From positions 32,001 through 96,000 of IMG/VR virus record IMGVR_UViG_3300012983_000001: a stretch of DNA of 64,000 nucleotides; one strand, written 5' to 3'. Positions 1,487-30,482 of the stretch are shown piece by piece. Positions within the stretch are counted from its first letter, which is position 1. Every line of letters starts with the position of its first letter. The stretch is from a virus. Taxonomy: Duplodnaviria; Caudoviricetes. The translations under genes were made by a program, and so were the position numbers. The notes beneath the pieces were generated by a model that worked only from the letters and a program-made list of their open reading frames with translations, was not told the origin of the DNA and did no database searches.

Positions 1487-1496
1487 GAGGTGCAAC

Positions 1497-1805: not shown

Positions 1806-1809
1806 TGAG

Positions 1810-1837: not shown

Positions 1838-1853
1838 CGTTTCTGGAGGTTAT

Positions 1854-3261: not shown

Positions 3262-3262
3262 G

Positions 3263-5244: not shown

Positions 5245-5261
5245 GGAAAGGTGGAGGCTAA

Positions 5262-9322: not shown

Positions 9323-9583
9323 ATGTTGAACGAGAATATTATGGGCTATATGCTAACTAATGCCTATAAAAAATCAACCATGTCACAGGAAAGAAACAAT
9401 GTAAAGGCAGACATCTCAGAAGAAGAGGCGTTGGAAATATACAACGAGATTCTGGATGTTTACAAGAAACACAATGTCTCTTATCAGTGTGCATGTAGGC
9501 TTAGCATTGCATTAAATGAAGCGTTCATGACAGGTGCAGTCGAGCTATACAGACAGGAACAACTCAATCCCTATCGGGATTAA
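9323..9583 (+). CDS. Hypothetical protein
   Basis: AAAGGAG RBS before ATG 9323. Confidence 0.7.
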   Translation: MLNENIMGYMLTNAYKKSTMSQERNNVKADISEEEALEIYNEILDVYKKHNVSYQCACRLSIALNEAFMTGAVELYRQEQLNPYRD

Positions 9584-9615
9584 AGGGCTATCATTAAAGA
9601 AAGGAAGTAGAAAAC

Positions 9616-10194
9616 ATGCTTAACTTAGCTAACTTATGTATCTTCGAAGGAAGAATGGCAAGAGACCCACAGTATAGTACTGTTCAGTTTGGACAGGAAA
9701 CAGTCGAAAAGGCAATGTTTACCATTGCAATCGACAGAGCATTAAGTTCTCAACAGAGACAGAAAGTAAAGAACGGAGACCAGTCCATTAAGACTGCTGA
9801 TTTTGTTCCATGTTCTTTATTGGGAGCACAGGTTGCTACGCTGAGACAGTATTTCCCGCAGGGTAAGGCTATTCGTGTTGAGGGTCACTATACTGAATAC
9901 CAGACTACGGACCAGCAGACAGGTCAGAAAAAGTATGGTCATGTATTTGAAATTGATTCCATTAGTTTCCCAACTCAGGATGCGAAGAGTTTACAGCAAA
10001 ATCAGGGTCAGCAGAATAACGGTGGTTACCAGAATAACAACGGTTATCAGAACAATAATGGCTATCAGAACAATGGCGGTTATCAGGCACCACAGAATAA
10101 CTATCAGCAGGCACCTCAGTATCAGCAACCAGCACAGCAGGCTCCAGCTCCAGGCGGTTTCTCAATGTTCGATGAAGGAGAATCTCCATTCTAA
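9616..10194 (+). CDS. ssb: Single-stranded DNA-binding protein
   Basis: GRMARDP, FTIAIDR, ADFVPC, Q/N/G-rich linker, acidic tail ending PF. Confidence 0.95.
   Translation: MLNLANLCIFEGRMARDPQYSTVQFGQETVEKAMFTIAIDRALSSQQRQKVKNGDQSIKTADFVPCSLLGAQVATLRQYFPQGKAIRVEGHYTEYQTTDQQTGQKKYGHVFEIDSISFPTQDAKSLQQNQGQQNNGGYQNNNGYQNNNGYQNNGGYQAPQNNYQQAPQYQQPAQQAPAPGGFSMFDEGESPF
10012..10086 (+). repeat. Four 18-bp coding repeats (QNNxGY) in the SSB linker
   Basis: cagaataacggtggttac / cagaataacaacggttat / cagaacaataatggctat / cagaacaatggcggttat. Confidence 0.8.
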
Positions 10195-11088: not shown

Positions 11089-12264
11089 ATGGATAAAGAC
11101 AAAATGAAACGGTTACAGGCATCTATGGCGCAAATGAACAAGCGTTATGGTGCAGGTACTGTAATGAGCGCAGCTGAAGCTGCGGCTCAAGGAAAGCTTA
11201 CCAAAAAAGTTATACCAACACCATCCCTTGAGTTGAATGATGCACTGCATTGCGGTGGCTTTTCGGGCATTGTTGAACTTTATGGTCCAAACTCTTCTGG
11301 TAAAACCAGTCTTGCTATTGACACACTGGTAAAGAGCCAGAGAGATGATGAAAATTTCGTTGCCGCATGGCTTGAAACTGAGGGCTCTGTAACTCTTGAT
11401 ATTTTACGAGACCATGGTGTTGACCTTGCAAGATTACTGTATTGGAGACAGGAAGATGTCGGCAATGCAGAAAACGCTTTGGATATTGCCAGAGGCTTTA
11501 TTGTCGGTGGAGATGTTGACATGATAATTGTTAACTCTGTTGCTGGCTTGGCACCAAAGACTGAAACTGAAGACGATTTAGAGAAACAGAATATTGCATT
11601 AACGGCAAGACTGTTATCTAAGTTCTTCCGTGTTGCTAATGGATATGCATCTAAGAATGATGTTACAATGTTATTTATCAATCAAGTACGTGACAATGTT
11701 GGTCAGATGTTTGGTGATACTACAACCACTACTGGTGGTAAGGCATTAGCATTCTATGCATCTCAGCGTATTAAGATGAATCGTAATAAGATTATGGCTT
11801 CCGACCCTATTAAGGAAGAGGATGGCGTAAAGATTTCTTGTATTATTCACAAGAATCGTTTCGCTGGTAAACACAATCCATTTACGAAGTGTATCTATTA
11901 TGCAACATATGCAGGCGGTATTGATTCTGTTGTTGCATTACCACAGATGTTACTGGAAGCTGGCATTATGCGTCAGGCTGGTGCATGGTGGTATTATGAA
12001 GACGCACAGGGTAATTTAATTACTGTTGACGGTATCGTCGGTAAGTTCAGCAGTAAGAATAACTTCTTAGATGCGTTACGTTCAAGTGAAAAACTTTATA
12101 ATGAGTTGGTTAATAAACTTGGCCATCTTGCTGACAATCAGAACCAGGAAGAAATTGCAGCTATCGAAGCAGAAAATGCACAGCTCAATGCTGACATGGA
12201 TGAGATTAACAGAATCGAAGCCGCAGAAGACATTAATGAAGTACTGGAACAGAATAACCAGTAG
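11089..12264 (+). CDS. recA: RecA-like recombinase
   Basis: ELYGPNSSGKT, FINQVR, TTGGKALAFYAS, KNRF, GAWWYY. Confidence 0.95.
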   Translation: MDKDKMKRLQASMAQMNKRYGAGTVMSAAEAAAQGKLTKKVIPTPSLELNDALHCGGFSGIVELYGPNSSGKTSLAIDTLVKSQRDDENFVAAWLETEGSVTLDILRDHGVDLARLLYWRQEDVGNAENALDIARGFIVGGDVDMIIVNSVAGLAPKTETEDDLEKQNIALTARLLSKFFRVANGYASKNDVTMLFINQVRDNVGQMFGDTTTTTGGKALAFYASQRIKMNRNKIMASDPIKEEDGVKISCIIHKNRFAGKHNPFTKCIYYATYAGGIDSVVALPQMLLEAGIMRQAGAWWYYEDAQGNLITVDGIVGKFSSKNNFLDALRSSEKLYNELVNKLGHLADNQNQEEIAAIEAENAQLNADMDEINRIEAAEDINEVLEQNNQ

Positions 12265-12270
12265 TAAGCA

Positions 12271-12304
12271 AGCACGGGGCGAAAGTCCCGTGCTAATTTG
12301 TTTT
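12271..12304 (+). terminator. Rho-independent terminator
   Basis: AGCACGGGGC-gaaa-GTCCCGTGCT followed by a T-rich tract. Confidence 0.75.
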
Positions 12305-12318
12305 GAAAGAGGTGGCAT

Positions 12319-14219
12319 ATGCCTACAGATTTGAATACTTTAAATGACCAGCAGAGAACTGCTGTCTTAGAATCTATGAATCATAATGTGGTTCTACTTG
12401 CAGGAGCAGGTAGTGGTAAAACTGCCACCCTTGTAAAAAGAACGCAATATCTCATAGATGATTTAGGTGTTTCACCTGATAACATTATGATAATTACGTT
12501 TACAAACAAGGCCGCTGGAGAGATTCGTGAGCGTGTTTCTACTGTATCTACTCAGGCATATAAGATGTGGATTGGTACATTCCATCGTATTTGTACACGT
12601 TTAATGCGTATGTTCGGTAGTAGATTAGGTATTCAGAATTTCACAATCATGGATACTAAAGAAAGCAAAAACCTTGTCAAAGAAATTCTTGATGCACAAG
12701 GCGTTGAATATACGTCATATATGGTAACTGATTTGGTCTCTAAGATTAGTACTTACAAGAACAATCTTATAAAACCTGTTAAGGTATTAGCAGACCCAAA
12801 CGAAAAGAAACTTAATGCAACGGTGTATCAGGAATATCAGAATATATCCTGGAGACGTAAAAGTTTTGACTTTGATGATTTGATTATCTATACCATCTTA
12901 TTGCTGTCGTCATATGCAGACGTGTTGCAATGGGTACATGATAACATTAAGTATTTGATGGTAGATGAAAGCCAGGACACCAATAGTGCTCAGTTCCAGC
13001 TCATTCAGCTGATTGCTGGCGACAATAACATCATGATGGTTGGCGATACATGTCAATCCATTTATGGATTCAGAAATGCTAAGCCGAAATACTTAGAGTA
13101 CTTTGCCGACAATCATCCGAATACAGTAAAACTTAAGCTAGAACAGAATTATCGTTCTACTAAGACAATCATTGAAGCAGCAAACCACGTGGTTAACAAG
13201 AATCAATTTGGTACTAAGCTTCAAATGTTTTGTGCAAACGAAGTCGGTGAGAAGATTCAGGTATTTGAAGGCCTGGACGCTTACAATGAAGCGAGATGGA
13301 TTGCTTCAGAGATTCTCATGAATGGCAACAAGAACCTATCTAACTATGCTGTAATTTATAGAGCAAACTTCCAGTCTCGTATACTGGAAGAAGAGTTTAC
13401 TAAGTGCGGTATCGGTTATACTGTTTTTGGTTCACAGTCATTCTATTCCAGAAAAGAAGTTCGCGATTTGTTGGCATACTGTAAGTTAGTAGTGAATCCA
13501 TATGATATCGAAAGCTTTAAACGTATCTTAGGCACACTTAAGGGAGTAGGTAAAGTAACAATAGATAATATTGTTAACAATGCTCAAGATAACTGTATTA
13601 ACTTCCACGACGCTATCAATGCATATTTACCAAATATGAAAGCAGGAGTTATCAGTCATCGCTTACAGACAGTGTCTAGTATCATCAACAAACAGTACGA
13701 TAAATGTAGTGACATTGTTAAGGATGTTCTCTTCCTAACGGAATATAAAACAGAACTTACTAATGTACAAACAGAAGAAACGGACGAGAAGCTTGCTATC
13801 ATTGATGAATTTGTTGAAATGATGCTTAGCATGGAAGCGAATGATGCAAATGATAATATGACCGAAATCATTGACCAGATTGCATTACTTTCTGATGCAA
13901 AAGGTGCTGAAAAAGCTAATCTTAACGCAGTCAAACTCATGACTGCTCATGCATCAAAAGGACTGGAGTTTAATACTGTATTCATTGTAGGAGCCGAGGA
14001 GGGATTATTCCCTCATGCAAATGCATTAAACGAAAATACAACTGAAGCCATTAAGAAGAACGTCGTCTGTTCTATGTAGCCATGACTAGAGCTCAAAAGA
14101 AACTGTATATCAGTCGAGCATGTCAGAAACGTGCAGGTAAAGAAGGCGGGCTTATTATTTCAAAGGCCAGCAGATTCCTTCGTGAAATACCAAAACATTT
14201 GACAGAAGAAGCGTTTTAG
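12319..14219 (+). CDS. pcrA: UvrD/PcrA SF1 helicase, frameshifted at about 14053
   Basis: AGAGSGKT, TFTNKAA, VDESQD, QSIYGFR, LEQNYRS, TAHASKGLEF; motif VI EERRLFYVAMTRA lies in the -1 frame and ends at TAG 14217-19. Confidence 0.9.
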
Positions 14220-17243: not shown

Positions 17244-17678
17244 ATGGCAATTTTAAATTACACTACAACAATAGACGCTTACAAAACAGTCAGCGAGATT
17301 GAACACATTCTTGTTAAGCACAAGGCAAAATCTATTATGAAAGATTATGATGGCGAATCCATTATCGCTTTGAGCTTTTTGATTGATGTTGGATATAATC
17401 AGCTACCAATTAAATTGCCAGCAAAGATTGATGAGTGCTATAAAGTTTTATGTACGGAGAAAGCCAATGGCACTAAGAATATCAAAGCAACACATGAGCA
17501 GGCAGAAAAGGTGGCATGGAGAATCCTCAAAGACTGGGTTGAAGCTCAAATGGCATTGCTAGATATCCACATGGTTAAGTTCGAGGAAATCTTTATGCCG
17601 TACATTGTTGATACTCAAGGTAAGACATTATTCGAGAAACTTGAGGAAAGACAGTTTTTACTAACACAAACTGACTAG
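17244..17678 (+). CDS. Conserved phage hypothetical protein
   Basis: NYTTTI..QAEKVAWRILKDWVEAQMA motif. Confidence 0.75.
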   Translation: MAILNYTTTIDAYKTVSEIEHILVKHKAKSIMKDYDGESIIALSFLIDVGYNQLPIKLPAKIDECYKVLCTEKANGTKNIKATHEQAEKVAWRILKDWVEAQMALLDIHMVKFEEIFMPYIVDTQGKTLFEKLEERQFLLTQTD

Positions 17679-17687
17679 GAGGACCAT

Positions 17688-20072
17688 ATGAGAATTTTAC
17701 ACATTACAGACTCACATGGTACCGCTAAGGGTCCTGAAAGCAGAAAGGACGTTTACTATATCACATTCTTGAAGAAACTGTATGAGTTAGGTTTTGTTAT
17801 CAAAAAACTTAATGTTGATATGGTTATCCATACTGGTGACTTGTTTCATACAGCAAGAGTGTCTGATAAGTTTGCTGGCCAGGTATCTGCAATGATTAAG
17901 TCTATGGGAGTACCATTTTATGTAGTTCCAGGTAATCATGACATTGAAGGCTATACTACAGATACTATTGACCAGACAAAACTTGGGTTGCTCGCTAAAG
18001 CAGGTGTCGTTACGATACTTGATAGAGATAATCCTATTCGTATTACTGCAACTCAGAACGGTGAGGAATTTACAGTAGCCATTAGCGGTCAAGAGTATTA
18101 CGCTCATATTGATGAAGGCAACATGCGTGATTTCGAAATGCAACAGGATGAGGCAGATTTAAACATTCTTGCTATCCATGGTTACATTGCCGACACTCCG
18201 CAACATCCCGACATTAAATGTACAATGGCCAATGACATTGTTACAGATGCTGACCTTATTTTGACAGGTCATTACCATCGGTCCTTTGAGTGGAGCGATG
18301 GACAGAATCTTGATATTTTTAATCCAGGTTCAATGATGAGAGTTGAACAAACGGATTATAACAAGACGCATACACCACAGTATGGTATATTAGATATCAA
18401 TCTGGATGAGAATGGTAGCATTGAATGGGACTATAAGTTCCATCAGTTCCGCATAGCGCAGCCATCTACAGTAATATTTGATTATGCGTCAAAATATAAA
18501 GCTAAAGCGGCTTCGATTACACTGGATGGATTTAAGACAAGCATTGCCAATACCATGACAGCGGTACAGCCGTCTATGACAATCGACAAAATTATTGGTG
18601 ATATTTGTACTACAGGCAAGGTAGATGCCAAGGTAGAACAGCTTGCCTTTAAGATGTATCATGATACATTGCAAGCAATTCCAGATGAATTTGAAGCTCA
18701 GCAAGGCTATATTGAAGCTCAAAAGACAAAGAAAATTTCCAAAGTTATTCTGGAGAATTTTCAGTCTCATGCACATACCGAAGTAGAATTTGATGATGGA
18801 TTAAATATCATTGTAGGTGAATCCAACAATGGTAAGACATCTATTCTTCGAGGTATCATGTGGGTTATTGATAATCAGCCGTTAGGTACTGATTTCATTA
18901 TGGCAGGTCAGGATAATTGTTATGTTCGCATTGAATATAATGATGGTACATTTATTGAGAGGGGACGAACCCTCAAAGATACTGGCTATTACAAAGTAGG
19001 TTTCATTGACGAGAATGGTAACTTAACTCATCAAATGTATCGTGGCTTTACCAATGCAGTTCCTGTTGAGGTTGCTAATGTACACCAGATGCCTAAAGTT
19101 AATATCACTAAAGATATTGAGACTCATCTTAATGTATTGTCTCAGTTAGATGCTCCATTCTTGCTCACAGAAAGCCCGCTGGTGAAAGCTTCTGCTATTG
19201 GTAGAATAACAGGTACCCATGTGGTAGATGCGGCCATTAAAGAGGCAAATAAGACGATTCAAGGTGGACGCAAATCCATTAAGCATTATGAACAAGAACT
19301 TACAGAGAAAGAAAATGAGTTAAAGGCGTTGCCAGACATTGCGTTGATGACTCAGTTTACCGCGGCATATGCTGCACTTGTGGCAAGAATGAAGTCTTTG
19401 AACGAAGGTATTGAGAAAATTGAAAACTTCATAGTGTGCAATGACCAATATGAACGACTTATTGCACAGGACGAAGTGCGTTATGCCCAGTACCGTGTAT
19501 TAAGCAATCTTCAGAATGTAGTAAGCTTAGCAGAAACTAAGCTGACTCAAACAAAGCCTTTGCATCTTGCTTATGAAGAGTTACAGATTACTCAAATGTC
19601 TATTGGTCATCATCAGAATACATTGAATAGAACACAGAGCTTGCTTCATTTCAAACCGATTGTAGAGCAGGCATGTGATTTAAAACAATCTATTGACCAG
19701 TTACAAAGCAAATATGATTTGTGCGTAAACATTGAGCAAAACTTATCTTCATTTGAATCTAATGCCAATGCTCTTATAGAGTACAATCGGCATTTGAATG
19801 CAATCCATATTTACTGTGGATTACTCAATGATTATATCCAGCGAATGGCACCAAAGATTATACAAATTGCAGATATCGCAACGAAGCAAAGTGCTGTTGT
19901 TGATAACATTGCAATTCTTAAGCGTACCACAAAGAAGCTGGATAGCCAGGTCAAGGAAGCACAGCAACAAAAGAATGCCTTTATTTTAGATAATGGTATT
20001 TGCCCATGCTGCGGACAGAAAGTTGAAGAATCTCATATACCAGCAATTACATCATTTATGGAGGGACAATAA
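17688..20072 (+). CDS. SbcD/Mre11 nuclease fused to the N-half of SbcC/Rad50 (Walker A, coiled coil, Zn hook)
   Basis: HITDSH, TGDLFH, GNHD, TGHYH, NPGS; then LENFQSH, GESNNGKTS, SQLD; C-terminal CPCCG. Confidence 0.9.
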   Translation: MRILHITDSHGTAKGPESRKDVYYITFLKKLYELGFVIKKLNVDMVIHTGDLFHTARVSDKFAGQVSAMIKSMGVPFYVVPGNHDIEGYTTDTIDQTKLGLLAKAGVVTILDRDNPIRITATQNGEEFTVAISGQEYYAHIDEGNMRDFEMQQDEADLNILAIHGYIADTPQHPDIKCTMANDIVTDADLILTGHYHRSFEWSDGQNLDIFNPGSMMRVEQTDYNKTHTPQYGILDINLDENGSIEWDYKFHQFRIAQPSTVIFDYASKYKAKAASITLDGFKTSIANTMTAVQPSMTIDKIIGDICTTGKVDAKVEQLAFKMYHDTLQAIPDEFEAQQGYIEAQKTKKISKVILENFQSHAHTEVEFDDGLNIIVGESNNGKTSILRGIMWVIDNQPLGTDFIMAGQDNCYVRIEYNDGTFIERGRTLKDTGYYKVGFIDENGNLTHQMYRGFTNAVPVEVANVHQMPKVNITKDIETHLNVLSQLDAPFLLTESPLVKASAIGRITGTHVVDAAIKEANKTIQGGRKSIKHYEQELTEKENELKALPDIALMTQFTAAYAALVARMKSLNEGIEKIENFIVCNDQYERLIAQDEVRYAQYRVLSNLQNVVSLAETKLTQTKPLHLAYEELQITQMSIGHHQNTLNRTQSLLHFKPIVEQACDLKQSIDQLQSKYDLCVNIEQNLSSFESNANALIEYNRHLNAIHIYCGLLNDYIQRMAPKIIQIADIATKQSAVVDNIAILKRTTKKLDSQVKEAQQQKNAFILDNGICPCCGQKVEESHIPAITSFMEGQ

Positions 20073-20395
20073 TGGATTTTAAAGAACAGTATCAGAGTTA
20101 TGATAAGACTCTTAACGATTTGAAGAATCAATGTGCAGAAGCCGAGAAGCAGGCAATTATTGCAGAAACAAATCTGAATAACTTGCGCAAGCAAAGAGAA
20201 CAGCTTATCGAAGAATGCGAAGCATTCGCTGGTGTATCAATGGGACAGGTCCCTGAGATACTTGCACAGAAAAAGGAAGAACTGGATGCTATCATGGCAA
20301 AATTATCTGCCATTGATGTTACTGGTCCAATTACACAGGATAAGCTCGATGCAATCAAGGCAATTACCGATGAATTCGCAGTACCTGTAGCGTAG
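20072..20395 (+). CDS. Small coiled-coil protein of the SbcCD-like operon
   Basis: Heptad pattern; translationally coupled (TAATG). Confidence 0.75.
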   Translation: MDFKEQYQSYDKTLNDLKNQCAEAEKQAIIAETNLNNLRKQREQLIEECEAFAGVSMGQVPEILAQKKEELDAIMAKLSAIDVTGPITQDKLDAIKAITDEFAVPVA

Positions 20396-20404
20396 GAGGC
20401 TTGT

Positions 20405-21115
20405 ATGAGTATAGAGACATTTGAACAAACCTTGAAACAGTTAGAAACAAATGTCATCATTGCTAAGCAAAACGAGGCTAATTTGCAGAAAGATATTGCA
20501 AATATTAAGCTACATGCGGCTAATTACGAAGAAATGTGCCAGAACTTAGAAAAGGTTATTGTTATATTAACTCAGGCTGCTACAGCTTCCAGAGATAATG
20601 CCAGAGCCCACTTTGAGAAGATAGTTACAGATGCATTGCAATTTGTAACTCAAAGTAAGGATTACGAATTCATTGTCAAAGAGCTACCAAATCGCGCTAA
20701 AGCTTCATATGAATTCTATATCAAGAGTACAGTTAATGGTGTAGAATGCATTCAGAAACCAGAAGACGCTAATGGCGGTGGCTTCGTAGACATTATCTCT
20801 GTAGCTTCTAAGTATGCATATAGAGAAATATTTAATGACCCTAAGATTATGAGTGACACATTGCTGTATGATGAACCTGGTAAAATGGTATCTGAGCAAA
20901 TGTCTATTAAGTTTGCTGAGTATATCAAGTTCCTTGGGAATCATTATGGAAGACAGACAATCATGATTACTCATAATGAGCACCTTTCTAATGTTGCAGA
21001 CAAGACATTTGTGGTACGCAAGGGTAATGATGGTATAAGTACCGCAACGGAATTAACTTCTGCAAGTGTAAGCTTTGATGATGTGGAGGGATTATTTGAT
21101 GAAAATCTCAATTAA
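20405..21115 (+). CDS. C-terminal half of SbcC/Rad50 ABC ATPase
   Basis: Signature ANGGG, Walker B LLYDEP, H-loop MITHN; no Walker A. Confidence 0.88.
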   Translation: MSIETFEQTLKQLETNVIIAKQNEANLQKDIANIKLHAANYEEMCQNLEKVIVILTQAATASRDNARAHFEKIVTDALQFVTQSKDYEFIVKELPNRAKASYEFYIKSTVNGVECIQKPEDANGGGFVDIISVASKYAYREIFNDPKIMSDTLLYDEPGKMVSEQMSIKFAEYIKFLGNHYGRQTIMITHNEHLSNVADKTFVVRKGNDGISTATELTSASVSFDDVEGLFDENLN

Positions 21116-21833
21116 AGACAGAGGGATGCTTGTAGCTATTGAAGTAGATAGTCATCCCACTAAAAAGCAGGCTTTAAAGCTATTTGAGTCTATGTATGAC
21201 ATGTACAAAGATTTTGTTGGCGATGAAGATAAAGTTGTTGCTTGTGATGATGAATGCAAGGCAGCATCAGAACCTGCTGTAAAACCTGTACAAGTTGCTA
21301 GAGATGATTTTAATATTAGACAGCGTTTGCCAAATAACGTTGTCGACATTAAAGAGCTCGATATTAAGCAGGCAGTAACCCAAAAGGCATTGGTGCGTTG
21401 TCCAAAATGTGGACAGGCGCATTGTCTAGCTGTAAATTCTGGACAAAAAGTTTATCTTATGGAGCGTAATTTCAGCACTGACGACTTTAATGTTATTGCA
21501 GAGTTTGACTCCTTAAATAGTCAGGATTTTGCTGATGTATGCTGTACAGAGAATACAGATAGACTTGCATATTTCAATGATTTGCAGAGTGCAGAAGTTA
21601 TTAGTCGCGATGATTTTGCTGCTGATAACGATACAGAATTATTCTGTCCTGTGTGTTGTTCGTCGAATGCATTCTTCTATTGGAAAGATGCATTTGAAAC
21701 GCCATTAAAGTATTTTGAAACAGAGCACCTTTGTGATGTATGTGGCGGTGAGAAAATCGAAAGATTTATCAAGAAAAAACATGTACATCAGTGCGATAAA
21801 TGTGGTCATCAGACCGATTATAAGGAGGAATAG
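21099..21833 (+). CDS. Multi zinc-ribbon protein
   Basis: CPKC, CPVC, CDVC, CDKC. Confidence 0.75.
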   Translation: MKISIKDRGMLVAIEVDSHPTKKQALKLFESMYDMYKDFVGDEDKVVACDDECKAASEPAVKPVQVARDDFNIRQRLPNNVVDIKELDIKQAVTQKALVRCPKCGQAHCLAVNSGQKVYLMERNFSTDDFNVIAEFDSLNSQDFADVCCTENTDRLAYFNDLQSAEVISRDDFAADNDTELFCPVCCSSNAFFYWKDAFETPLKYFETEHLCDVCGGEKIERFIKKKHVHQCDKCGHQTDYKEE

Positions 21834-22179: not shown

Positions 22180-23388
22180 ATGGATATAGATACAGATGAA
22201 CTTAAAGCGTATGCCCCACTAATTCCATATGTCAAGCAATTCTACAAAGACAAAATTCAGATTGTTAGAGAGACTCAAAATGTAGCGTTTGCTCCTTGTA
22301 TATGGCATTCTGAAAAGACGGCTTCTTTGGCATTATTTGCTAACGGTAGTTATAAATGTTTTGGATGCGGGGAACATGGCGATGTGATTACATTAGTCCA
22401 AGACATTGAGAATTTACCATTTCAGGAGGCGTGTAAAGTGATAGGAGATAATGTTGGTTATGAAGTTATTCTTGAAGAACCTAATCCAGTACATGAAGCG
22501 TATAAAGATACTCTTGATAATCATACGAGAAGGTACTGGAGTAACTTACAGAATCATGGTGAGGCATTGCGATACTTGCTATGTGAACGTGGTATCTCAA
22601 AAGAAATGATTGATTTATTTCGTTTGGGATATACAGATGCAGAAGAATATAAGTATCGTACAGACATGGGGAGCATATCAAACAAGATTGTGTTTCCAAT
22701 TTTGGAACACAAGAGACGTAACGCAAAATGCGTTGGTATGGCGTATCGTGGACTAACAAACGATAAGCCGAAGTACATTAATGATGTTAACCAGGATGGA
22801 AGAGAAGGACAAGACCCACAACTTGCAGGCTTGTTCATCAAAGGTGATTTATTATATGGCTTACCTTTGGCGTATGAAAGTATTGCAAAGCAAGGTCATG
22901 TTATTTTGGTGGAAGGATATTTTGACGTAATTGCTATGCATCAAGCAGGCATTACAAATGTTGTTGGCTCTATGGGAACAGCAATTACTGAAAATCAAAT
23001 CAATGCTATAGCTAGGATTACAAAGAATGTAATTCTGTTTTTGGACAGTGATAAAGCTGGAACCAATGCTATGGTAAGATGTATTAAGGATTTATATACT
23101 GCTGGTATTAATGTTGCTGTTTGTATTATTGAAAACAATATGGACCCAGCAGATTTATGCAAAGCAATGAACTTTGACAGCACGGCGATTGGTATGGAGA
23201 TTAAATCTCATACAAAGCAAGGCATAGAGCTGGTTATCAATAGTTCAGTAGAGCGTTATGAAAATATCGCTACGATTGAAAGGACAAGAGCACTACGCAC
23301 TGCCATGCCAATTATTGACGCAGTTCAGGACAGTGCGATTAGAGAGCTATATAAATCCAAGTTGTTTAAGCGACTGGATATCATTTAA
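22180..23388 (+). CDS. dnaG: DnaG-type primase
   Basis: CIWH..CFGC zinc finger, PKYIN, VEGYFDV, MGTA, LDSDKAG, DPAD. Confidence 0.95.
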   Translation: MDIDTDELKAYAPLIPYVKQFYKDKIQIVRETQNVAFAPCIWHSEKTASLALFANGSYKCFGCGEHGDVITLVQDIENLPFQEACKVIGDNVGYEVILEEPNPVHEAYKDTLDNHTRRYWSNLQNHGEALRYLLCERGISKEMIDLFRLGYTDAEEYKYRTDMGSISNKIVFPILEHKRRNAKCVGMAYRGLTNDKPKYINDVNQDGREGQDPQLAGLFIKGDLLYGLPLAYESIAKQGHVILVEGYFDVIAMHQAGITNVVGSMGTAITENQINAIARITKNVILFLDSDKAGTNAMVRCIKDLYTAGINVAVCIIENNMDPADLCKAMNFDSTAIGMEIKSHTKQGIELVINSSVERYENIATIERTRALRTAMPIIDAVQDSAIRELYKSKLFKRLDII

Positions 23389-23398
23389 GGAGGTTTAT

Positions 23399-24280
23399 AT
23401 GGAAACACACGACAACGAAATGCAGGATATGTTAGAACACGTAAAGGAATTTGTTGGTGCAGGTGATGTTCAGGTTATCGGATTAGACGATACCTTTGGA
23501 TTCAAATGTCAACAATGTGGTCAGTGTTGTATGTACAGAGAAGACATTGTACTGAATCCTTTTGATGTTTACAATGGAGCTCAGTATTTGGGCATTACGC
23601 CATCAGAGTTTATTCAGCAGTACGCCCATGTTGAATTGGGAGCGGAATCTAAGATTCCAATGGTTCTGTTAAAAAGCACAGATAATGGCTTTTGTCCGTT
23701 GCTGAAATTCGATATTAAGGACGGCTGTAAGTTCAAGTGTATGATTCACGAAGCTAAGCCTGGTGCATGTGCTAATCATCCTATTGGCGTAATGCGTTCC
23801 CGTAAAAAGGACGAAGGTATGGACAAAGAAGTTATGACCTTTATTAAGGTTGACCAGTGTCCGAACAGTGTATCTGATGAGCAACAGGTTGTAAGAGAAT
23901 GGGTAAAGTCTTATCTTGACCATGAAGAAGAGATTGCATATGCACATCAGATGCAAACCATGGTTACAAATTATTTTGATACCAAAGAATTTTGGGCAAT
24001 GATTCAGAAACTGTTAGTATTTGCTCGTGGTGCAGAATCTGAAGAAATCATGGAAAAGTTCTTATCATTACCAAAGTCTTATATCGGTACTGTTATTGCA
24101 TTAGGTTATGCAGATTTTGATATCAACCAGCCATTCATTGAACAGGCTAAGGTAAATATCGAAAAGCTTGATGAGTTCTTTACGAAGACCAAAGAACTTT
24201 ATGACCATCTGAAGCTAGTTGCCGACCTTGCAGACGAACATGCATCAGAAGCTTTCAAACGAATTTTCAAGGAGGATTAA
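23399..24280 (+). CDS. YkgJ-family CxxCxxCC metal/Fe-S protein
   Basis: FKCQQCGQCC, CPLL, CMIHEAKPGACANHP; AAGGAGG before ATG 23399. Confidence 0.85.
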   Translation: METHDNEMQDMLEHVKEFVGAGDVQVIGLDDTFGFKCQQCGQCCMYREDIVLNPFDVYNGAQYLGITPSEFIQQYAHVELGAESKIPMVLLKSTDNGFCPLLKFDIKDGCKFKCMIHEAKPGACANHPIGVMRSRKKDEGMDKEVMTFIKVDQCPNSVSDEQQVVREWVKSYLDHEEEIAYAHQMQTMVTNYFDTKEFWAMIQKLLVFARGAESEEIMEKFLSLPKSYIGTVIALGYADFDINQPFIEQAKVNIEKLDEFFTKTKELYDHLKLVADLADEHASEAFKRIFKED

Positions 24281-24281
24281 C

Positions 24282-24683
24282 ATGGGAACATCAGTTGATG
24301 CAACATTGCATTTTGACCAACAGAAAATCAAGGATATGGAATCTTTGGTGGCTATCAATGAAGAGCTTAAGAAGCTTGAGGCCAAGAAGAAAGACCTGGT
24401 AGAGCTTGTTAAGCAACATATGTTAACTGCTAATATTGACAAAGTTGATGTAAACGGTAGCACAATCATGGTTACGGAATCTGAACGTAGAACCGTAACA
24501 AAGGCTACCAAGGACCAGTTTATTGCGGAGTTAGTAAGTATGAACAAGAAACATCTTGTTATTCATACGCTTGACCCAGATGTAGACAGCATCTTCGCAG
24601 AAGTAGATGCAGGTACATTGCCTAAAGACTTTGTTGATAAATATGTAAAAGTCTCTTCAGTAAAGACATTGCGGTGCAACTAA
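24282..24683 (+). CDS. Hypothetical coiled-coil protein
   Basis: AAGGAGG RBS before ATG 24282. Confidence 0.75.
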   Translation: MGTSVDATLHFDQQKIKDMESLVAINEELKKLEAKKKDLVELVKQHMLTANIDKVDVNGSTIMVTESERRTVTKATKDQFIAELVSMNKKHLVIHTLDPDVDSIFAEVDAGTLPKDFVDKYVKVSSVKTLRCN

Positions 24684-25237
24684 TGCTTGATGAGATGAAA
24701 CAGCATCTTTCTGCTCTGTCAATTCCAACAGAGCAGAAACAGTATGCCATGAACTTCTGCAAAAAGATGGAATATCTTGATTCGCTTCATAAGATTACAG
24801 CCCAAGAAGTAAATGAATACGTAGCTACTGGTTTTGGTAATTTCAATTCAAAGATATGTTTTGTATTTAAAGACAAGATTACGTATGAAATAGTACGGCC
24901 ATTGCTTCAAGAAACATTAGAAAAGTTTCATATCAACGCATGGGATATTTATGTAACGTTTGTCAATAAAACAAAAACTGAGTATAATAAAAAATACATG
25001 TTCCTAGTGAATGAGCTTCATGCTATTAATCCAGGAATTATGTATGTCTTTGATAATGATACAGTATTGTATGATACTATCTTGAAAGAATTCCAAACCA
25101 ATAATGTTACTGCGCCAGGAAAGCATTTCCTGGTTGATATTCAAAAGCTGGGCTCTTTAGAAGTTGAAGTACGCAAAGACTTATGGAATATATTCAAGTA
25201 TCTCATTAATTTTAAAGAAATCACACAGGAGGATTAG
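24674..25237 (+). CDS. Second, highly degenerate family-4 UDG-like protein
   Basis: GFGNFNSKICFV, LLQETLEKFHINAWDIYVTFVNK, FLVNELHAINPGIMYVF, KDLWN. Confidence 0.55.
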   Translation: MQLMLDEMKQHLSALSIPTEQKQYAMNFCKKMEYLDSLHKITAQEVNEYVATGFGNFNSKICFVFKDKITYEIVRPLLQETLEKFHINAWDIYVTFVNKTKTEYNKKYMFLVNELHAINPGIMYVFDNDTVLYDTILKEFQTNNVTAPGKHFLVDIQKLGSLEVEVRKDLWNIFKYLINFKEITQED

Positions 25238-25239
25238 TC

Positions 25240-25848
25240 ATGGACCAGAATTTAACTCAGCAACCGCAACAGGTTGTAGTTGCACAGCCTGTTATGTTTA
25301 ATCCAGCAGTACCACAACGCACATACACAAACCCTCAATGGAGCATTAAGGAAGATTGGTATACTCAACAGTGTAACAGTATTCAGTTATCTGACAGTCC
25401 TACACCAGCACAGATTCAGCAAGCTGCGTTACAGATTGACACATTGCTTACAGTGGCTCGTATTGATTATGCATTTGTTAGTCAGATGTATGATAGATAC
25501 AGTATGCAACTTAAGATTGAGGAAAAGCGTAACTTCGTTGACTTGAAGATTTCTCCGCCAACTACTTACAATACATTGAAGTTAACTGTTGACGAGATGA
25601 AGGGCGTTGTAACATCTGTTATTCAGAAGAACCCATGGGCAGGAACCAAATATTCATTGTATGAGCTTGTAGAAATGTCCAGCGGTAGAAACATCTTCAT
25701 GGAAGCAATCATTAAGATTCTTCAGGACAAGAAGGATTTGCTGATTACTCACAGCGGTATGCTTAAGATTGAAAACAGCTTAAGTGGTATGCAGTCTAAT
25801 GCACCAACTACACCACGTCACGGTTATAATAATGCAATGGAGGAATAA
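25240..25848 (+). CDS. Hypothetical helical protein (possibly UvsY-like mediator)
   Basis: AGGAGG RBS; long helices; recombination context only. Confidence 0.6.
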   Translation: MDQNLTQQPQQVVVAQPVMFNPAVPQRTYTNPQWSIKEDWYTQQCNSIQLSDSPTPAQIQQAALQIDTLLTVARIDYAFVSQMYDRYSMQLKIEEKRNFVDLKISPPTTYNTLKLTVDEMKGVVTSVIQKNPWAGTKYSLYELVEMSSGRNIFMEAIIKILQDKKDLLITHSGMLKIENSLSGMQSNAPTTPRHGYNNAMEE

Positions 25849-25851
25849 GAC

Positions 25852-26418
25852 ATGAGTTGTGCATATGAAAGTTCTTGTATGAACTACGGCAAGTGTTTCC
25901 GCTGCACAAACGAAAGTCTTTTGAAACTCAAGGGACAGAAAGGCCAGCGGAAAACCGCTGGTCTTTTTAGTACTCATGATAATAAAACAGCTCAGGCTGA
26001 AGATTCATGGAAAGACCTAGAACAACAAGTAGCGGATAAATTAAACAACATCCCGACCATGCAGGAAGCAAGACGCAGTCGAGCGTCTGGAGCCTTATGG
26101 TTTGAGAAGGGTGATATTGTTGACCGAATTCTCCATCCAGAATGTAAGGAACGTAAAGGTAATGAATTGAAGTCTGGCGAAAAATCTATCTCTATTAAGA
26201 GAGAATGGCTTGAAAAAGCCGCTGACGAATGTAAATTCGAAGACAAAACAATGTGTCTGCCATTCAGGTTCAAAGGCGACGAGAATATTTATTGCATCTT
26301 TAGGAACGACGATATCGCAGAGCTCATCACTATAATGAAAGCTTATATGCTAGATAACGAACTGAAGGACCAGGAAATAGCCAGACTAAAAACCATTATT
26401 GAAAGAAAGGAGAGTTAA
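25852..26418 (+). CDS. Hjc-like PD-(D/E)xK Holliday junction resolvase
   Basis: EQQVA, RRSRASGA, KGDI, ECK; N-terminal Cys cluster. Confidence 0.7.
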   Translation: MSCAYESSCMNYGKCFRCTNESLLKLKGQKGQRKTAGLFSTHDNKTAQAEDSWKDLEQQVADKLNNIPTMQEARRSRASGALWFEKGDIVDRILHPECKERKGNELKSGEKSISIKREWLEKAADECKFEDKTMCLPFRFKGDENIYCIFRNDDIAELITIMKAYMLDNELKDQEIARLKTIIERKES

Positions 26419-26419
26419 A

Positions 26420-27739
26420 ATGCCTCGTAAACCCGAATATGAAAAAGAGTTGCTTGCGTTAATCAAGCAACCACAAGGGACAGCTAATGCAGATGAGAAT
26501 GGCCAAGATACCCTTTCTCTTGTTAAAGAAATTATAACAGAGTATACTGACCCAGAAACAAATCAAACAAGTGCTGAGACACTGTATGTGTATCATAATC
26601 GTAAGAATGGTGGCATATATATTCCTGTTCAGAACATGCTGAAAAACTATCTTCATGCATCTATGGAAAATAAGAAGCTGTTTTCGCTTGCATATCCACG
26701 TATCATGTATGTGCGTTTGGAACATGATTATCGTAAGGATATGCAAAGCAAGACATTGCAACTTATGATATCTATTGATGGAATACAGGAATTTGTAAAC
26801 TCAAAACTACTTTGTAGCCGTCAGGCAAAAAAGGAAGAATTGTACGCATTACTCACTGAAACCATGAAGTCAATACATATTGTGCCTGTGTTGACAAATC
26901 CTGGTATAATGACTGAAAGTGGTGTGCAAGATATCTTAACAGTAAAGACCAGTGAAACTGTGACAAGTATATTACCAACAGATTTCGCAGCGCCACAAGA
27001 AGAAACATCGGCAATTCAGCAACCAGAAGAAACTTCAGAAGAACCAGCAACAGAAGAAGTTGCGACTGAACAAACATCAGAAGACGACTTACATGTCGAC
27101 ACAATGCTTCTTGGAATACCAAGTAAGTATATAGAAAGCCATGTTAAACCAATGGTAGAAATGATTCAGGCATGTTGTAATGCTGAAAGTACAGTACAGA
27201 ATCAAGCTAATGAAGTCGAATATTTAAGGTCAGAGAATCAAAGATTGCAGAAAGAGCTGGATGAAGTACTTAAAACACGTGCTTCAAGTAAACATATTAC
27301 ACATGCTGATACTGCTGGTGTTTTTGATGACATTGCAAAATTAAGTCACCATTGCCAGCATATACAGACTATTGTAGGTGATACTATACGTATATGGATT
27401 AATCTTGAAAAAGGTGTTGTGAATCAGCACGACACTGATGCACAGCAACAAACAAATCTTATATATGATGAGCTTGCAGTAATCATTGGACAAAGAGTGT
27501 ATAAGACTCAGGGATATGCAGGTTCTACATTAAACTATATTGTTACACAAACCAACTACGCTGTTGAGCTTCTACAAGCATGTTATCAAGTATTTGAGAG
27601 ACAAGGTTGTTTGAAGTATTTACTGATAGCTATTAAGGATTGTTTTAAGCTTAAATATTTAAACACTTCCATATACTATCTGAATCGGATGTTAAAGAAA
27701 CTGGATACTCCAATCCCGTTATTAAAAGACGAAGAATGA
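26420..27739 (+). CDS. Hypothetical protein with acidic linker and coiled coil
   Basis: AAAGGAG RBS before ATG 26420. Confidence 0.75.
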   Translation: MPRKPEYEKELLALIKQPQGTANADENGQDTLSLVKEIITEYTDPETNQTSAETLYVYHNRKNGGIYIPVQNMLKNYLHASMENKKLFSLAYPRIMYVRLEHDYRKDMQSKTLQLMISIDGIQEFVNSKLLCSRQAKKEELYALLTETMKSIHIVPVLTNPGIMTESGVQDILTVKTSETVTSILPTDFAAPQEETSAIQQPEETSEEPATEEVATEQTSEDDLHVDTMLLGIPSKYIESHVKPMVEMIQACCNAESTVQNQANEVEYLRSENQRLQKELDEVLKTRASSKHITHADTAGVFDDIAKLSHHCQHIQTIVGDTIRIWINLEKGVVNQHDTDAQQQTNLIYDELAVIIGQRVYKTQGYAGSTLNYIVTQTNYAVELLQACYQVFERQGCLKYLLIAIKDCFKLKYLNTSIYYLNRMLKKLDTPIPLLKDEE

Positions 27740-27748
27740 GGTGAATAA

Positions 27749-28933
27749 ATGAGTTACACTGCACTATATCGTAAGTACAGACCAACAGTCTTTGATGATG
27801 TACATGGGCAGTCCGCTATAGTGCAGACTCTCAAGAATCAGATTACATCTCATAGAATTGCACATGCTTACTTGTTTAGTGGCCCACGAGGAACTGGTAA
27901 GACCAGTATTGCAAAAATTTTTGCAAAAGCCATTAACTGTAAGTCGCCCGTAAATGGCAGTCCATGTTTACAATGTGAATGTTGTCAAATGAATAATACA
28001 GATGTTGTCGAGATAGATGCTGCATCAAATAACGGCGTGGACCATATACGAGAACTAATCGAGGAATCAAAGTATATGCCACAGCATGGACAATACAAAG
28101 TCTATATTATAGACGAAGTACACATGTTATCTTCTAGTGCCTTTAATGCCTTATTGAAGACATTAGAAGAGCCGCCAGCACATGTTGTATTTATCCTGGC
28201 TACAACTGAAGATTACAAAGTGCCTGCCACGATTACTTCACGCTGTCAGCGTTATACTTTTAGGTTGATTAACGACGTAGGTATCGTACAGGCATTACAG
28301 CAGGTTCTTATTCAGGAAAATATAGAATGGGAAACTGACGCTGCATTGTTGCATATTGCCAAGCTTGCACATGGAGGTCTAAGAGATGCCTTGAGTCTCT
28401 TAGACCAATGTGTAACGTTTGCCAATGGAAAAATTACCTTGGCATTAGTTAAAGAAGTGTTTGGAGAAATTGAGAATACAACACTTACTTGCATGGCAAA
28501 TGCAATTCAAACTAAGGACGTTACACAGTTGTTAGATATTATTGCCGAAGAAGAACAAAGTGGCAAATCACTAGCAAAGATATGTGTTGACTTATATGAA
28601 TACTATCGCGATATATACTTCAGCAATCCAGATGCAGATACAATAATTTATCAAAGATATATGAAAATTCTTGCTGAATTATCTGAGAAAATGAGGTATA
28701 ATAATAATCGTAGTATGTTCGAAATAGAAATAATTAAGATGTGTACTCCACAAATGGAAACGGATTATTCAGCATTGTACCATCGAATACAGCAACTGGA
28801 AAACATTGTTGAAAGATTATTAAATAATCAGCCAGTGTGTTATCAAAAGCCAGAGCCTGTTGATGAAAGTGAATTCATTTCATTTTGTGTTAAAGCACCG
28901 TATCATGTTTCTACAGAACTGTATTATATCTAA
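27749..28933 (+). CDS. dnaX: DNA polymerase III gamma/tau clamp-loader subunit
   Basis: LYRKYRP, GPRGTGKTS, EIDAASN, IIDEVHML, SRCQ, GGLRDA. Confidence 0.95.
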   Translation: MSYTALYRKYRPTVFDDVHGQSAIVQTLKNQITSHRIAHAYLFSGPRGTGKTSIAKIFAKAINCKSPVNGSPCLQCECCQMNNTDVVEIDAASNNGVDHIRELIEESKYMPQHGQYKVYIIDEVHMLSSSAFNALLKTLEEPPAHVVFILATTEDYKVPATITSRCQRYTFRLINDVGIVQALQQVLIQENIEWETDAALLHIAKLAHGGLRDALSLLDQCVTFANGKITLALVKEVFGEIENTTLTCMANAIQTKDVTQLLDIIAEEEQSGKSLAKICVDLYEYYRDIYFSNPDADTIIYQRYMKILAELSEKMRYNNNRSMFEIEIIKMCTPQMETDYSALYHRIQQLENIVERLLNNQPVCYQKPEPVDESEFISFCVKAPYHVSTELYYI

Positions 28934-28945
28934 AGGAGGATTAAG

Positions 28946-29410
28946 ATGAGCAACAGTATTAAGTTGAGCCCTAAACATGGGGTAAATCCAACCATGCCAG
29001 TTTGTTTCTGGTGCGGACAACCGAAAAACGAGATTGCACTGTTAGGTAAGCTTCCAGATGATGCGGAAGCACCAAAACATATCATTATGGACTATGAGCC
29101 ATGTGATGCATGTCGTGAAATCTTTGGTAAAGGTATTCATGTAATTGGTGTTACTGAAAAGCCAATGGTTCCTAACATGTTCCCGATTGTTAGTGACGAA
29201 CACAACACCCTTTACCCAAGTGGTTCTATGTTTGTTGCACGACCAGAATGGGCAGAAAGATTTCTTACTGCCAATGACCAGCAGGATATGGTTACGGATG
29301 TCTTAGAAAAGAAAGCCTTGTTGTTACCAGATGAAATCGTAAATGAAATCATTAAGGACGCTAAGGCAGTAGAAGAAAGCGAAGGAGGACAGGACAATGC
29401 AGATAATTAA
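28946..29410 (+). CDS. Zn-binding hypothetical phage protein
   Basis: SPKHGVNP, CFWCG, EPCDAC. Confidence 0.75.
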   Translation: MSNSIKLSPKHGVNPTMPVCFWCGQPKNEIALLGKLPDDAEAPKHIIMDYEPCDACREIFGKGIHVIGVTEKPMVPNMFPIVSDEHNTLYPSGSMFVARPEWAERFLTANDQQDMVTDVLEKKALLLPDEIVNEIIKDAKAVEESEGGQDNADN

Positions 29411-30482
29411 TGCAGGTTATCAGCTCATTGAAGAGCCAAACGTGACAAAGAAAATCGAACGTGTTGCTCGTGTATGCTACAAGTCCGAAGATAAAATCGG
29501 TGAAGGTACCGACCTTAAAATGGTAAACGCTCTGATTGAGCGTCAGCATACTGCAATGCTTGAACATGCAGATGTTGCTCTGGTAGTTACAGGTGCAGAT
29601 TATAACTTTATGAAGAAAGTTGCTGAGACAATGGCGACACAGTGTCATAGCGAATCTACACCAAGACCTTGTTATTTACGGATGACTTATCATTCTGCTC
29701 AGGAACCATATGATGGTATCTCAAGCTATGGCCAAAGATACGTAGTCTCTGGTAACATTAGAGCTTGGCATGATTACTTTGATTTTGCAACTGCATATGG
29801 CTATGGTATTCAGAAGCCAGTATTTGACCTGGTAAACGAAGCAGCTAACCATATCTTTGATAAGTTTGCCGATGGTGTTGGCGTAGCAGATGGAGTAGCT
29901 CATTACTTTAAGAATGACACTCCAGATGCAAGACTTGTCAAAGATTATAGCACCTTGTCAGACGCAGAACGCATGGTGCATGAAACCCTTAGCATCCTGT
30001 TTACTGTAGACCGTGGCGTTACTCATGAACTGGTTCGTCATAGACCTGTAAGTTTCGCTCAGGAGTCTACTCGTTATTGTAATTACTCTTTAGGTAAGTA
30101 TAATAACGAAATTACTGTTATTGAGCCTTGTTTCTTTGCACGTCCAGAAGGCGGCGATTATGATGCTGAAGCATGGGCTGAAACTTATGGCGCATGGAGA
30201 CATGCGTGTGAGGAAGCTGAAAGAATGTACTTCCGTCTGTTAGAAGCAAAGGCAACTCCGCAACAGGCAAGAGATGTATTGCCAACATCGGTTAAGGCAG
30301 ATATCGTAATGACTGCCAATCTTTGCGAGTGGAAGCATATTTTCGCATTAAGAGCATGTGATTCTACTGGTCCAGCACATCCGCAGATGGCTGAAGTAAT
30401 GCGTCCATGCCTGAAGGAATTAAAGTCTAGCAAGTATGCATTTGCGTTCAAAGATTTGATAACGCCTGACGAAGTTATTTAA
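29397..30482 (+). CDS. thyX: FAD-dependent thymidylate synthase
   Basis: HTAMLEH, THELVRHRPVSFAQESTRYCNY, ARDVLP, AHPQM. Confidence 0.95.
   Translation: MQIINAGYQLIEEPNVTKKIERVARVCYKSEDKIGEGTDLKMVNALIERQHTAMLEHADVALVVTGADYNFMKKVAETMATQCHSESTPRPCYLRMTYHSAQEPYDGISSYGQRYVVSGNIRAWHDYFDFATAYGYGIQKPVFDLVNEAANHIFDKFADGVGVADGVAHYFKNDTPDARLVKDYSTLSDAERMVHETLSILFTVDRGVTHELVRHRPVSFAQESTRYCNYSLGKYNNEITVIEPCFFARPEGGDYDAEAWAETYGAWRHACEEAERMYFRLLEAKATPQQARDVLPTSVKADIVMTANLCEWKHIFALRACDSTGPAHPQMAEVMRPCLKELKSSKYAFAFKDLITPDEVI

Follow-up and report, generated by a model that had tools for sequence, protein, structure and literature searches.

A probable Mre11-Rad50 complex encoded in three pieces by a phage, with the Rad50 chain cut at the zinc hook

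Rad50 and the related SMC-like (structural maintenance of chromosomes) ATPases are single chains that run out along a coiled coil, turn at a hook or hinge, and return to complete their own head. Can such a chain be cut at the turn and still serve as one machine? This question is raised by a locus in the 64,000-nucleotide (nt) stretch of phage DNA analysed here (positions 32,001 to 96,000 of the IMG/VR record IMGVR_UViG_3300012983_000001; hereafter, the window), which comes from a complete phage genome of 208,433 bp that has direct terminal repeats. Three genes are involved, all on the plus strand and all given in window coordinates: gene 1 (17688..20072; 794 amino acids (aa)), gene 2 (20072..20395; 107 aa) and gene 3 (20405..21115; 236 aa). 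An earlier note on this DNA had read them as a tripartite Mre11-Rad50, and the list of open reading frames (ORFs) contains all three exactly where that note had placed them. We arrive at the same reading: with a probability of about 75%, genes 1 to 3 encode a single DNA-end-processing complex of the SbcCD type that is split over three polypeptides.

The product of gene 1 begins as a nuclease and continues as half of an ATPase. It matches the Pfam families Metallophos (aa 1-198, E 2e-17, above the cut-off) and AAA_23 (aa 352-578, E 6e-14) and, in PHROGs, phrog_16465 and phrog_100, an SbcD-like nuclease family and an 'exonuclease' family; the latter is the N-terminal half of Rad50. The Mre11/SbcD phosphoesterase with its capping domain occupies aa 1 to ~262 (17688..18473). 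All the calcineurin-like phosphoesterase motifs I-VI (DxH, GD, GNH, H, GH, H) are present, and in an alignment of gene 1 with 40 homologs at 23-83% identity (41 sequences), the motif residues D8, D51, H84, H164, H195 and H197 are invariant, with H10 and N83 conserved in at least 90% of the sequences. The AlphaFold2 (AF2) model of the chain (mean predicted local distance difference test (pLDDT) score 82.4) consists, in this order, of an alpha/beta nuclease, three linker helices, an ATPase lobe, two long helices (510-546 and 551-769), a small beta hairpin at CPCC, and a last helix (781-793). The top 50 Foldseek matches of this model are all Mre11/SbcD structures (including 9bi5_B, E 1.2e-13; 3av0_A; 5dny_C; and 1ii7_B); because the 260-310 aligned columns extend over the Mre11 nuclease and capping cores, both folds can be considered present in gene 1.

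The Rad50/SbcC N-terminal ATPase lobe lies at aa ~346-509 (18723..19214), with the Walker A motif GESNNGKT at aa 377-384 (18816-18839) and the Q-loop glutamine at Q486; G382 and K383 of Walker A and Q486 are invariant in the 41 aligned sequences. The closest PDB sequences to this lobe are N-terminal fragments of P. furiosus Rad50 (1ii8_A, E 2e-8), and for aa 349-424 the best sequence matches are PDB Rad50 N-terminal fragments of 147-203 aa. The lobe is followed by the ascending coiled-coil helix (aa ~510-769; 19215..19994) and the zinc-hook motif C772-P-C-C775 (20001..20012), which is part of CPCCG at aa 772-776. This region (aa 518-784) aligns with positions 209-466 of the 888-position archaeal Rad50 model PRK02224, that is, with the ascending arm up to the hook. 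The hook residues C772, P773 and C775 are again invariant in the alignment, and only 19 residues separate the CxxC from the end of the chain. Everything that the earlier note had placed in this polypeptide, namely the SbcD phosphoesterase, the Walker A lobe of Rad50 and about 250 aa of coil (~260 aa in our delineation) ending at CPCCG, was recovered.

In place of a free-standing nuclease with a C-terminal helix-loop-helix Rad50-binding domain, gene 1 has a helical linker of ~80 aa that joins the nuclease to the Rad50 N-lobe (aa ~263-345; 18474..18722), with three helices assigned by DSSP on the AF2 model (266-292, 299-309 and 314-330). The linker had been described as free of internal methionines, which holds for its last ~20 residues before the Rad50 lobe but not for the whole of aa ~263-345, where methionines occur in NTMTAV, PSMTID and FKMYH. 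The 10-bp direct repeat that had been noticed in the linker, TTGAAGCTCA, is located at 18691 and 18712; these two copies, 21 nt apart and in frame, encode (F/I)EAQ twice. A third copy is found at 17539, so that the window contains three copies compared to 0.23 expected by chance.

The missing part of the ATPase head is encoded, most plausibly, by gene 3, in which a putative head-proximal returning helix (aa 1 to ~63) precedes a Rad50 C-terminal ATPase lobe. This lobe contains a signature-like GGG at aa 124-126 (20774-20782), the Walker B residues D156-E157 (20870-20875) and the H-loop histidine H190 (20972-20974), and G124-G126, D156, E157, Q184 and H190 are all invariant in 19 homologs at 24-81% identity, in agreement with the coil, signature, Walker B and H-loop that had been attributed to this gene from its sequence. 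The gene 3 product matches phrog_15167 ('ATPase', E 3.5e-34) and, weakly, the C-terminal ends of the Pfam SMC_N and NCBIfam RecN models. A single chain with both ATPase lobes was not found, given that gene 1 stops shortly after the hook and the C-lobe is a separate gene; the set of head motifs, Walker A, Q-loop, signature, Walker B and H-loop, is complete only across the two polypeptides. Gene 1 is the only match to the AAA_23 or SMC_N families in the complete 208,433-bp genome; therefore, the phage encodes no complete Rad50/SbcC elsewhere, and no other candidate than gene 3 is left for the missing lobe, which, as proposed in the note, is detached from gene 1. Longer, unsplit forms of gene 3 were not detected among 751 candidates, with no related protein exceeding 414 aa, although this is weak evidence.

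The positions at which the Rad50 chain is cut are conserved. A word-index search identified 386 clusters of gene 1 homologs, and in the 120 of these that were listed with lengths, the fused ORF, which joins the nuclease to the Walker A half as the note had claimed, measures 792-798 aa (~700-900 aa in more distant homologs); the contigs carrying these 120 clusters come from gut and other metagenomes and reach ~220 kb. An exhaustive search of 1.84 billion representatives yielded 466 clusters at E<1e-30, and among the best 150 of these (50%-identity representatives), which were inspected, no chain is longer than 898 aa and 132 end within 35 residues of the CxxC; of the rest, 6 have a long tail and 12 are either fragmentary or without a recognisable Walker A or hook. 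The N-half has its CxxC 6-20 residues from the C-terminus in every one of the 18 loci examined. The breaks thus occur at the same positions across hundreds of clusters, down to ~25% identity, and homologs of genes 1, 2 and 3 are all present in every examined locus that covers the region downstream of gene 1. The three-gene layout, for which the note had suggested a search, recurs in relatives including the cultured Bacillus thuringiensis phage 0305phi8-36, where it is represented by gp8 (769 aa, 34.5% identity over aa 1-581 of gene 1), gp7 (92 aa, weakly similar to gene 2) and gp5 (236 aa, 33% identity to gene 3, E 1e-35).

In several relatives, unrelated genes sit at the break points of Rad50, as if these junctions were preferred for insertion. 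Thus, in locus L003 a DUF1653 gene separates genes 1 and 2 (L003:8388-8852); in 0305phi8-36, gp6 lies between gp7 and gp5 (L001:8602-9318); in L010, genes 1 and 2 are separated by three ORFs and genes 2 and 3 by a further one (7337-9046 and 9329-9880); and an unrelated gene occupies a break point in L009 (7322-7618). Homing endonucleases were considered as the cause of the breaks and rejected, because the inserted genes lack HNH, GIY-YIG and Vsr domains and are assigned to DUF1653, to DUF1292 or to no family. The chain ends show no intein motifs.

What, then, is the small protein encoded between the two lobes? The product of gene 2, described in the note as a 107-aa coil, is predicted to form a helix of ~45 aa, a loop (AFAGV..P) and another helix. 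It has 69 homolog clusters (106-125 aa, 36-92% identity), and its family matches are limited to generic coiled-coil models. The most informative comparison is with a clade of six gene 1 representatives (P0303, P0305, P0312, P0313, P0323 and P0328; ~770 aa, support 100/100), in which CPxC is located at residues ~630-640 and is followed by a tail of 132-140 residues. Gene 2 is homologous to this post-hook tail: the two profiles align with a probability of 94.6% in hhalign (E 7e-8, 72 columns) and share a loop motif, EC...FGV..E.L in the tails and EECEAFAGV...PEIL in gene 2. In locus L026, where this long form of gene 1 (1493-3805) is followed after 3 nt by a gene 3 homolog (29% identity, E 2e-33), no small ORF is found between the two. 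Because the gene 2 sequence continues the Rad50 chain past the hook precisely where a separate gene 2 is absent, a Rosetta-stone case, gene 2 is a probable piece of the returning arm. The role in the return strand that the note had suggested for gene 2 thereby gained a natural counterpart, a gene 2 homolog fused directly behind the hook.

The same division of Rad50 is found where SbcD is not fused. Scanning IMG/VR with the single gene 3 sequence yielded one locus, and scanning with the gene 3 alignment yielded 15 more; mapping of these loci with hidden Markov models revealed two forms, with SbcD either fused to the N-half (~210-kb phages) or encoded by a separate gene (smaller phages). In the unfused loci L016-L025, the N-half measures 321-480 aa, the C-lobe 194-220 aa and SbcD 298-340 aa, in varying order. 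Across the unfused set, which includes L015-L025 and the Bacillus cereus prophage phBC6A51, the N-half ends 6-17 aa past CPxC, an ORF of 71-100 aa lies directly upstream of the C-lobe gene (194-261 aa), the SbcD gene is located between or after the Rad50 pieces, and the pieces are homologous to the C-terminal part of gene 1, to gene 2 and to gene 3. Over both forms, an ORF of 71-163 aa directly precedes the C-lobe gene in almost every locus, with similarity to gene 2 detectable for many of them (E 1e-60 to 1e-2). The prophage phBC6A51 (L030, NC_004820.1 3697-7874) provides a cultured example of the unfused, three-piece Rad50: BC1852 (518 aa, with CPLC 10 residues from the end; annotated 'Exonuclease SbcC'), BC1854 (77 aa, a gene 2 homolog, E 6e-11 against the gene 2 profile), BC1855 (211 aa, the C-lobe; annotated 'Chromosome segregation ATPases') and BC1857, a separate SbcD. 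Hence, the split is not peculiar to the lineage with fused SbcD. An N-half ending after CPxC, a small helical protein, a separate C-lobe and SbcD make up the system throughout, SbcD being fused in the window lineage. In a tree of the N-lobe (62 rows, 191 columns), the clade in which gene 1 and gene 2 are fused is monophyletic (100/100), and fused and unfused SbcD states are interspersed; given that the deep branches and the root are unresolved, the tree provides no order of events, and this clade may have either kept or regained the join.

The arrangement of the arm was modelled on the natural fusion P0303 (aa 466-770). In the AF2 model (pLDDT 80.9, with the highest confidence at both ends), helices 3-141 and 144-160 lead to the hook turn and helices 174-200, 210-256 and 260-301 return from it, so that the fused tail is paired by AF2 antiparallel with the ascending helix in a helical hairpin. 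Structural comparison with VIA-align yielded end-to-end antiparallel hairpins, among them Wadjet JetC (9qe0_A; Z 11.5, root-mean-square deviation (rmsd) 12.4, 305 residues aligned), a chemoreceptor (2ch7_A; Z 10.8, rmsd 8.3, 274 aligned), an SMC arm (5xg2_A; Z 10.8, rmsd 9.1, 235 aligned) and two Rad50 hooks (7zqy_A; Z 8.7, rmsd 6.6, 153 aligned; and 5gox_B; Z 8.4, rmsd 8.5, 170 aligned). These matches show the shape of the arm model and nothing more; Foldseek produced no match to it at E <= 0.001. A joint prediction of the three chains, proposed in the note, was carried out for aa 345-794 of gene 1 with gene 2 and gene 3, gene 2 being the scored partner. The interaction score from aligned errors (ipSAE) was 0.55 (0.56, 0.55 and 0.55 in separate runs), with a partner pLDDT of at least 80 and runs agreeing in at least 96% of contacts; it dropped to 0.00 when gene 2 was swapped for an unrelated protein and to 0.04 when the gene 1 chain was swapped. 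Of the calibration set, 58 of 80 solved complexes passed the mark, as did 2 of 110 mismatched pairs; scores of 0.60 or less were those of 7 of the 80 solved complexes and of both mismatched pairs that passed. The prediction is rated as weak support.

Taken together, these observations suggest the following machine. Gene 1 would contribute, in one covalent chain, a seemingly active Mre11 nuclease, the Rad50 N-lobe, the whole ascending helix and the CPxC zinc hook; gene 2, the middle of the returning helix; and gene 3, the head-proximal part of that helix with the Rad50 C-lobe. The N-lobe of gene 1 and the C-lobe of gene 3 would form one ABC-ATPase (ATP-binding cassette) head in trans, and two such heads would sandwich two ATP molecules, each between the Walker A of one head and the GGG signature of its partner. 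Two gene 1 chains would dimerise through their Mre11 domains and, at the far end, through one zinc ion presumably held by four hook cysteines. ATP-driven closure of the heads on a DNA end would then license cutting by Mre11. The arm would owe its cohesion solely to coiled-coil packing among the gene 1 helix, the 19-residue gene 1 tail, gene 2 and the N-terminal helix of gene 3. For the putative antiparallel pairing of the arm, the support consists of the AF2 model of the natural fusion and a weak complex score.

The proposed role follows from the setting. The neighbours of genes 1-3 encode a sliding-clamp-like protein, DnaE polymerase, RecA, UvrD, DnaG primase, a clamp loader and ThyX, and distant relatives of the window phage have similar replication-recombination neighbours around these genes. 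Because RecA, UvrD, DnaE, the clamp, the clamp loader and the primase are all nearby, the complex may be expected to act in recombination-dependent replication and repair, as do gp46/gp47 of phage T4; the locus points to such a role for the phage genome rather than to defence.

Several observations weigh against this interpretation. The curated NCBIfam models of Rad50, SbcC, Mre11 and SbcD all score far below their cut-offs (the top match of gene 1, the Rad50 model PRK03918, obtains 65.5 bits against a cut-off of 700). Low Rad50 scores are to be expected, because gene 1 is half of a protein and divergent as well; judging by its sequence, it is a divergent relative of Mre11-Rad50 and not a textbook ortholog. 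Similarity between coiled-coil profiles can be inflated by composition, and the Z values of the hairpin model are under ~13, the level at which matches of long helices turn specific. The lengths of the arm strands are also unequal: in the window phage, the returning pieces add up to ~170-190 aa, 70-90 residues short of the ascending helix (~260 aa), whereas in the clade with the fused tail the imbalance is reversed (~155 versus ~200), and among the representatives the distance from Walker A to the hook varies between 288 and 558 residues without a matching change in the small pieces. A simple equation of the ascending helix with the sum of the gene 1 tail, gene 2 and the gene 3 N-helix was therefore rejected, the sums being unequal and the lengths not co-varying across loci, so that the arm is not a plain two-stranded coil over its whole length in all members. 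The pLDDT of the gene 1 model dips at aa 601-610 and 651-660, which may mark an extra excursion of the arm.

These length differences, the helix-loop-helix form of gene 2 and its weak complex score would all fit a different division of labour, in which genes 1 and 3 constitute a two-piece Mre11-Rad50 and gene 2 is an accessory subunit that binds the arm or the head from outside the Rad50 chain, for instance, an adaptor or regulator that replaces the missing Mre11 helix-loop-helix Rad50-binding domain and became fused to the end of gene 1 in one clade; the 0305phi8-36 fusion indeed lacks the capping/helix-loop-helix segment of Mre11 according to Yoshida et al. 2011 (PMC3175470). We regard this as unlikely. 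In the clade concerned, the gene 2 homolog stands exactly where the returning Rad50 helix should start, AF2 makes it the antiparallel partner of the ascending helix, and there is no other candidate for the return segment, with the gene 3 homolog 3 nt on; if gene 2 were left out, the 260-aa helix would be matched by no more than ~80 returning residues (19 + ~63); and gene 2 is present also in phages with a separate SbcD. On balance, gene 2 is probably the middle piece of the returning Rad50 arm. A more radical objection would be that there is no split at all, but a single sbcC broken by sequencing errors, pseudogenisation or a read-through stop. In the window, genes 2 and 3 are read in one frame with only a TAG and 9 nt between them, and the same contig has a -1 frameshift in uvrD. 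Yet, the two genes are in different frames in the close relatives L003 and L006, so that joining by TAG read-through was rejected; each piece has its own Shine-Dalgarno sequence and ATG; entire unrelated genes separate the pieces in relatives; the break positions are identical in hundreds of clusters; and all pieces are conserved as proteins. Comparison of the sequences already contradicts decay or error, which we consider scarcely credible, and the split layout is not an artefact.

The complex assigned here to replication and repair could also be imagined as part of a conflict system resembling Lamassu, Gabija or OLD, in which an SMC-like ATPase-nuclease is directed against competing phages, plasmids or host DNA. 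The PADLOC models LmuB (E 7e-12), GajA, AriA and PtuA do match the Walker A lobe, and Lamassu LmuB is among the weak Foldseek matches of the arm model. These defence-model matches are, however, mostly confined to the generic P-loop lobe (aa ~349-400), although the best one, LmuB, continues along the coil to aa 782, and the best family and structure matches are to Rad50 and Mre11. A CPxC hook with an Mre11 partner is the signature of SbcCD, the genes are embedded in a conserved block with RecA, UvrD, DnaE and primase in distant phages too, and no LmuA/LmuC, GajB or TOPRIM partner, as expected of a member of such systems, is adjacent; a defence function hence appears quite improbable. A final possibility concerns not the identity but the consequence of the split, namely that the non-covalent arm is itself functional, with the arm or its gene 2 piece acting as a gate or dosage-controlled switch instead of being a neutral relic. 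The idea starts from a hairpin that no peptide bond closes at the hook and from a returning strand composed of exchangeable pieces. If it were so, the Rad50 ring might open beside the hook and thus be loaded on DNA that lacks a free end or, alternatively, the nuclease might be kept inactive until gene 2 is made. We consider this idea doubtful, if slightly less so than an accessory role of gene 2.

Compared to canonical Mre11-Rad50/SbcCD (E. coli SbcCD, T4 gp47-gp46 and the archaeal complexes), the window genes share the calcineurin-type nuclease with all Mre11 metal-ligand motifs, the ABC-ATPase head motifs, the long arm with a CPxC hook, and the placement among recombination and replication genes. 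They differ in two respects: canonical Rad50 is one chain that folds back at the hook, whereas the Rad50 of the window has one cut right past the hook and another within the returning helix; and the canonical nuclease docks via a C-terminal helix-loop-helix, whereas here it is covalently attached to the N-terminus of the ATPase. Separate N- and C-terminal fragments of Rad50, made as constructs for crystallography, assemble into a functional ATPase head. Those engineered two-chain heads (PDB 1F2T/1F2U, 1II8 and 1US8) are artificial and have the arm deleted, in contrast to the split described here, which is natural, retains the arm and the hook, and includes a third piece. Compared to the unfused phage form exemplified by phBC6A51, with its separate SbcD, the lineage of the window (~210-kb phages related to 0305phi8-36) has SbcD fused to the N-half.

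Fusions of Mre11 and Rad50, including Mimivirus R555, have been described by Yoshida, Claverie and Ogata (2011, Virol J 8:427, PMC3175470). The R555-type fusions resemble gene 1 in having the nuclease followed by the ATPase in one ORF, but contain a whole Rad50 (1351 aa), whereas gene 1 has only the N-half. In the same work, gp8 of 0305phi8-36 (A7KV18) is listed among the fusions as an incomplete case, in which one P-loop NTPase segment 'was not observed' and the capping/helix-loop-helix part is missing; gp5 and gp7 are not linked to gp8 there. The capping part reported missing from gp8 is seemingly present in gene 1, as judged from the ~300 columns aligned by Foldseek. The comparative-genomics paper on 0305phi8-36 labels the gp8 gene only 'rec. 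exo', and in the GenBank annotation of relatives the pieces appear as unrelated proteins. Full-text literature searches for a split or bipartite Rad50/SbcC found nothing relevant. The fusion of the nuclease with the ATPase is, therefore, already published (2011), and it is the natural split of Rad50 for which we found no paper; the three genes represent a new architecture for a familiar machine rather than a system of a new kind.

How signals travel along the arm of Rad50 and SMC proteins, and whether the arm or hook opens for DNA, are standing questions. The phages described here provide a large natural family in which the arm would be built from two or three separate polypeptides and is cut exactly at the hook, so that covalent continuity at the apex would be dispensable. 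For the field of SMC-like proteins, the interest lies in this cut made by nature at the apex; what we say of function is drawn from sequences and models. The split arm offers a ready-made system in which single segments could be added, omitted or labelled without engineering, and cultured members, Bacillus phage 0305phi8-36 and the prophage phBC6A51, are available. The analysis also explains the fusion reported in 2011 as 'lacking one NTPase segment', as this segment appears to be encoded two or three genes downstream, and it calls for correction of database names, given that the pieces are currently listed as 'exonuclease', 'hypothetical protein' and 'chromosome segregation ATPase'.

The three genes are closely packed and, as read from the sequence, separately equipped for translation. 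The Shine-Dalgarno sequence of gene 1, AGGAGG (17677..17682), lies 5 nt before the ATG at 17688; that of gene 2, GGAGGG (20060..20065), is within the 3' end of gene 1, the TAA of which overlaps the ATG of gene 2 (TAATG); and that of gene 3, AGGAGG (20394..20399), overlaps the TAG stop of gene 2 (20393-20395), all on the plus strand. No terminator-like site was found between genes 1, 2 and 3. A blastn comparison gave no DNA similarity to known phages.

The replication block of the window spans 4048-9250, 11089-14219 and 22180-30482, and its DnaE-type Pol III alpha subunit has a PHP domain. The gene of the UvrD-family helicase (12319-14219) is interrupted by a -1 frameshift near 14052, which leaves ORFs of 586 aa and 45 aa; at the break, the window reads GCCATT-AAGAAG and its relative L003 reads GCAATCGAAGAG, with an intact gene of 631 aa in L003. 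The frameshift is either an assembly error or a recent pseudogene. Downstream, starting inside the end of gene 3, the window encodes a cysteine-rich protein of 252 aa (21075-21833) with several CxxC pairs and weak zinc-ribbon matches; absent from the more distant loci, it has a 247-aa counterpart following the gene 3 homolog in L003.

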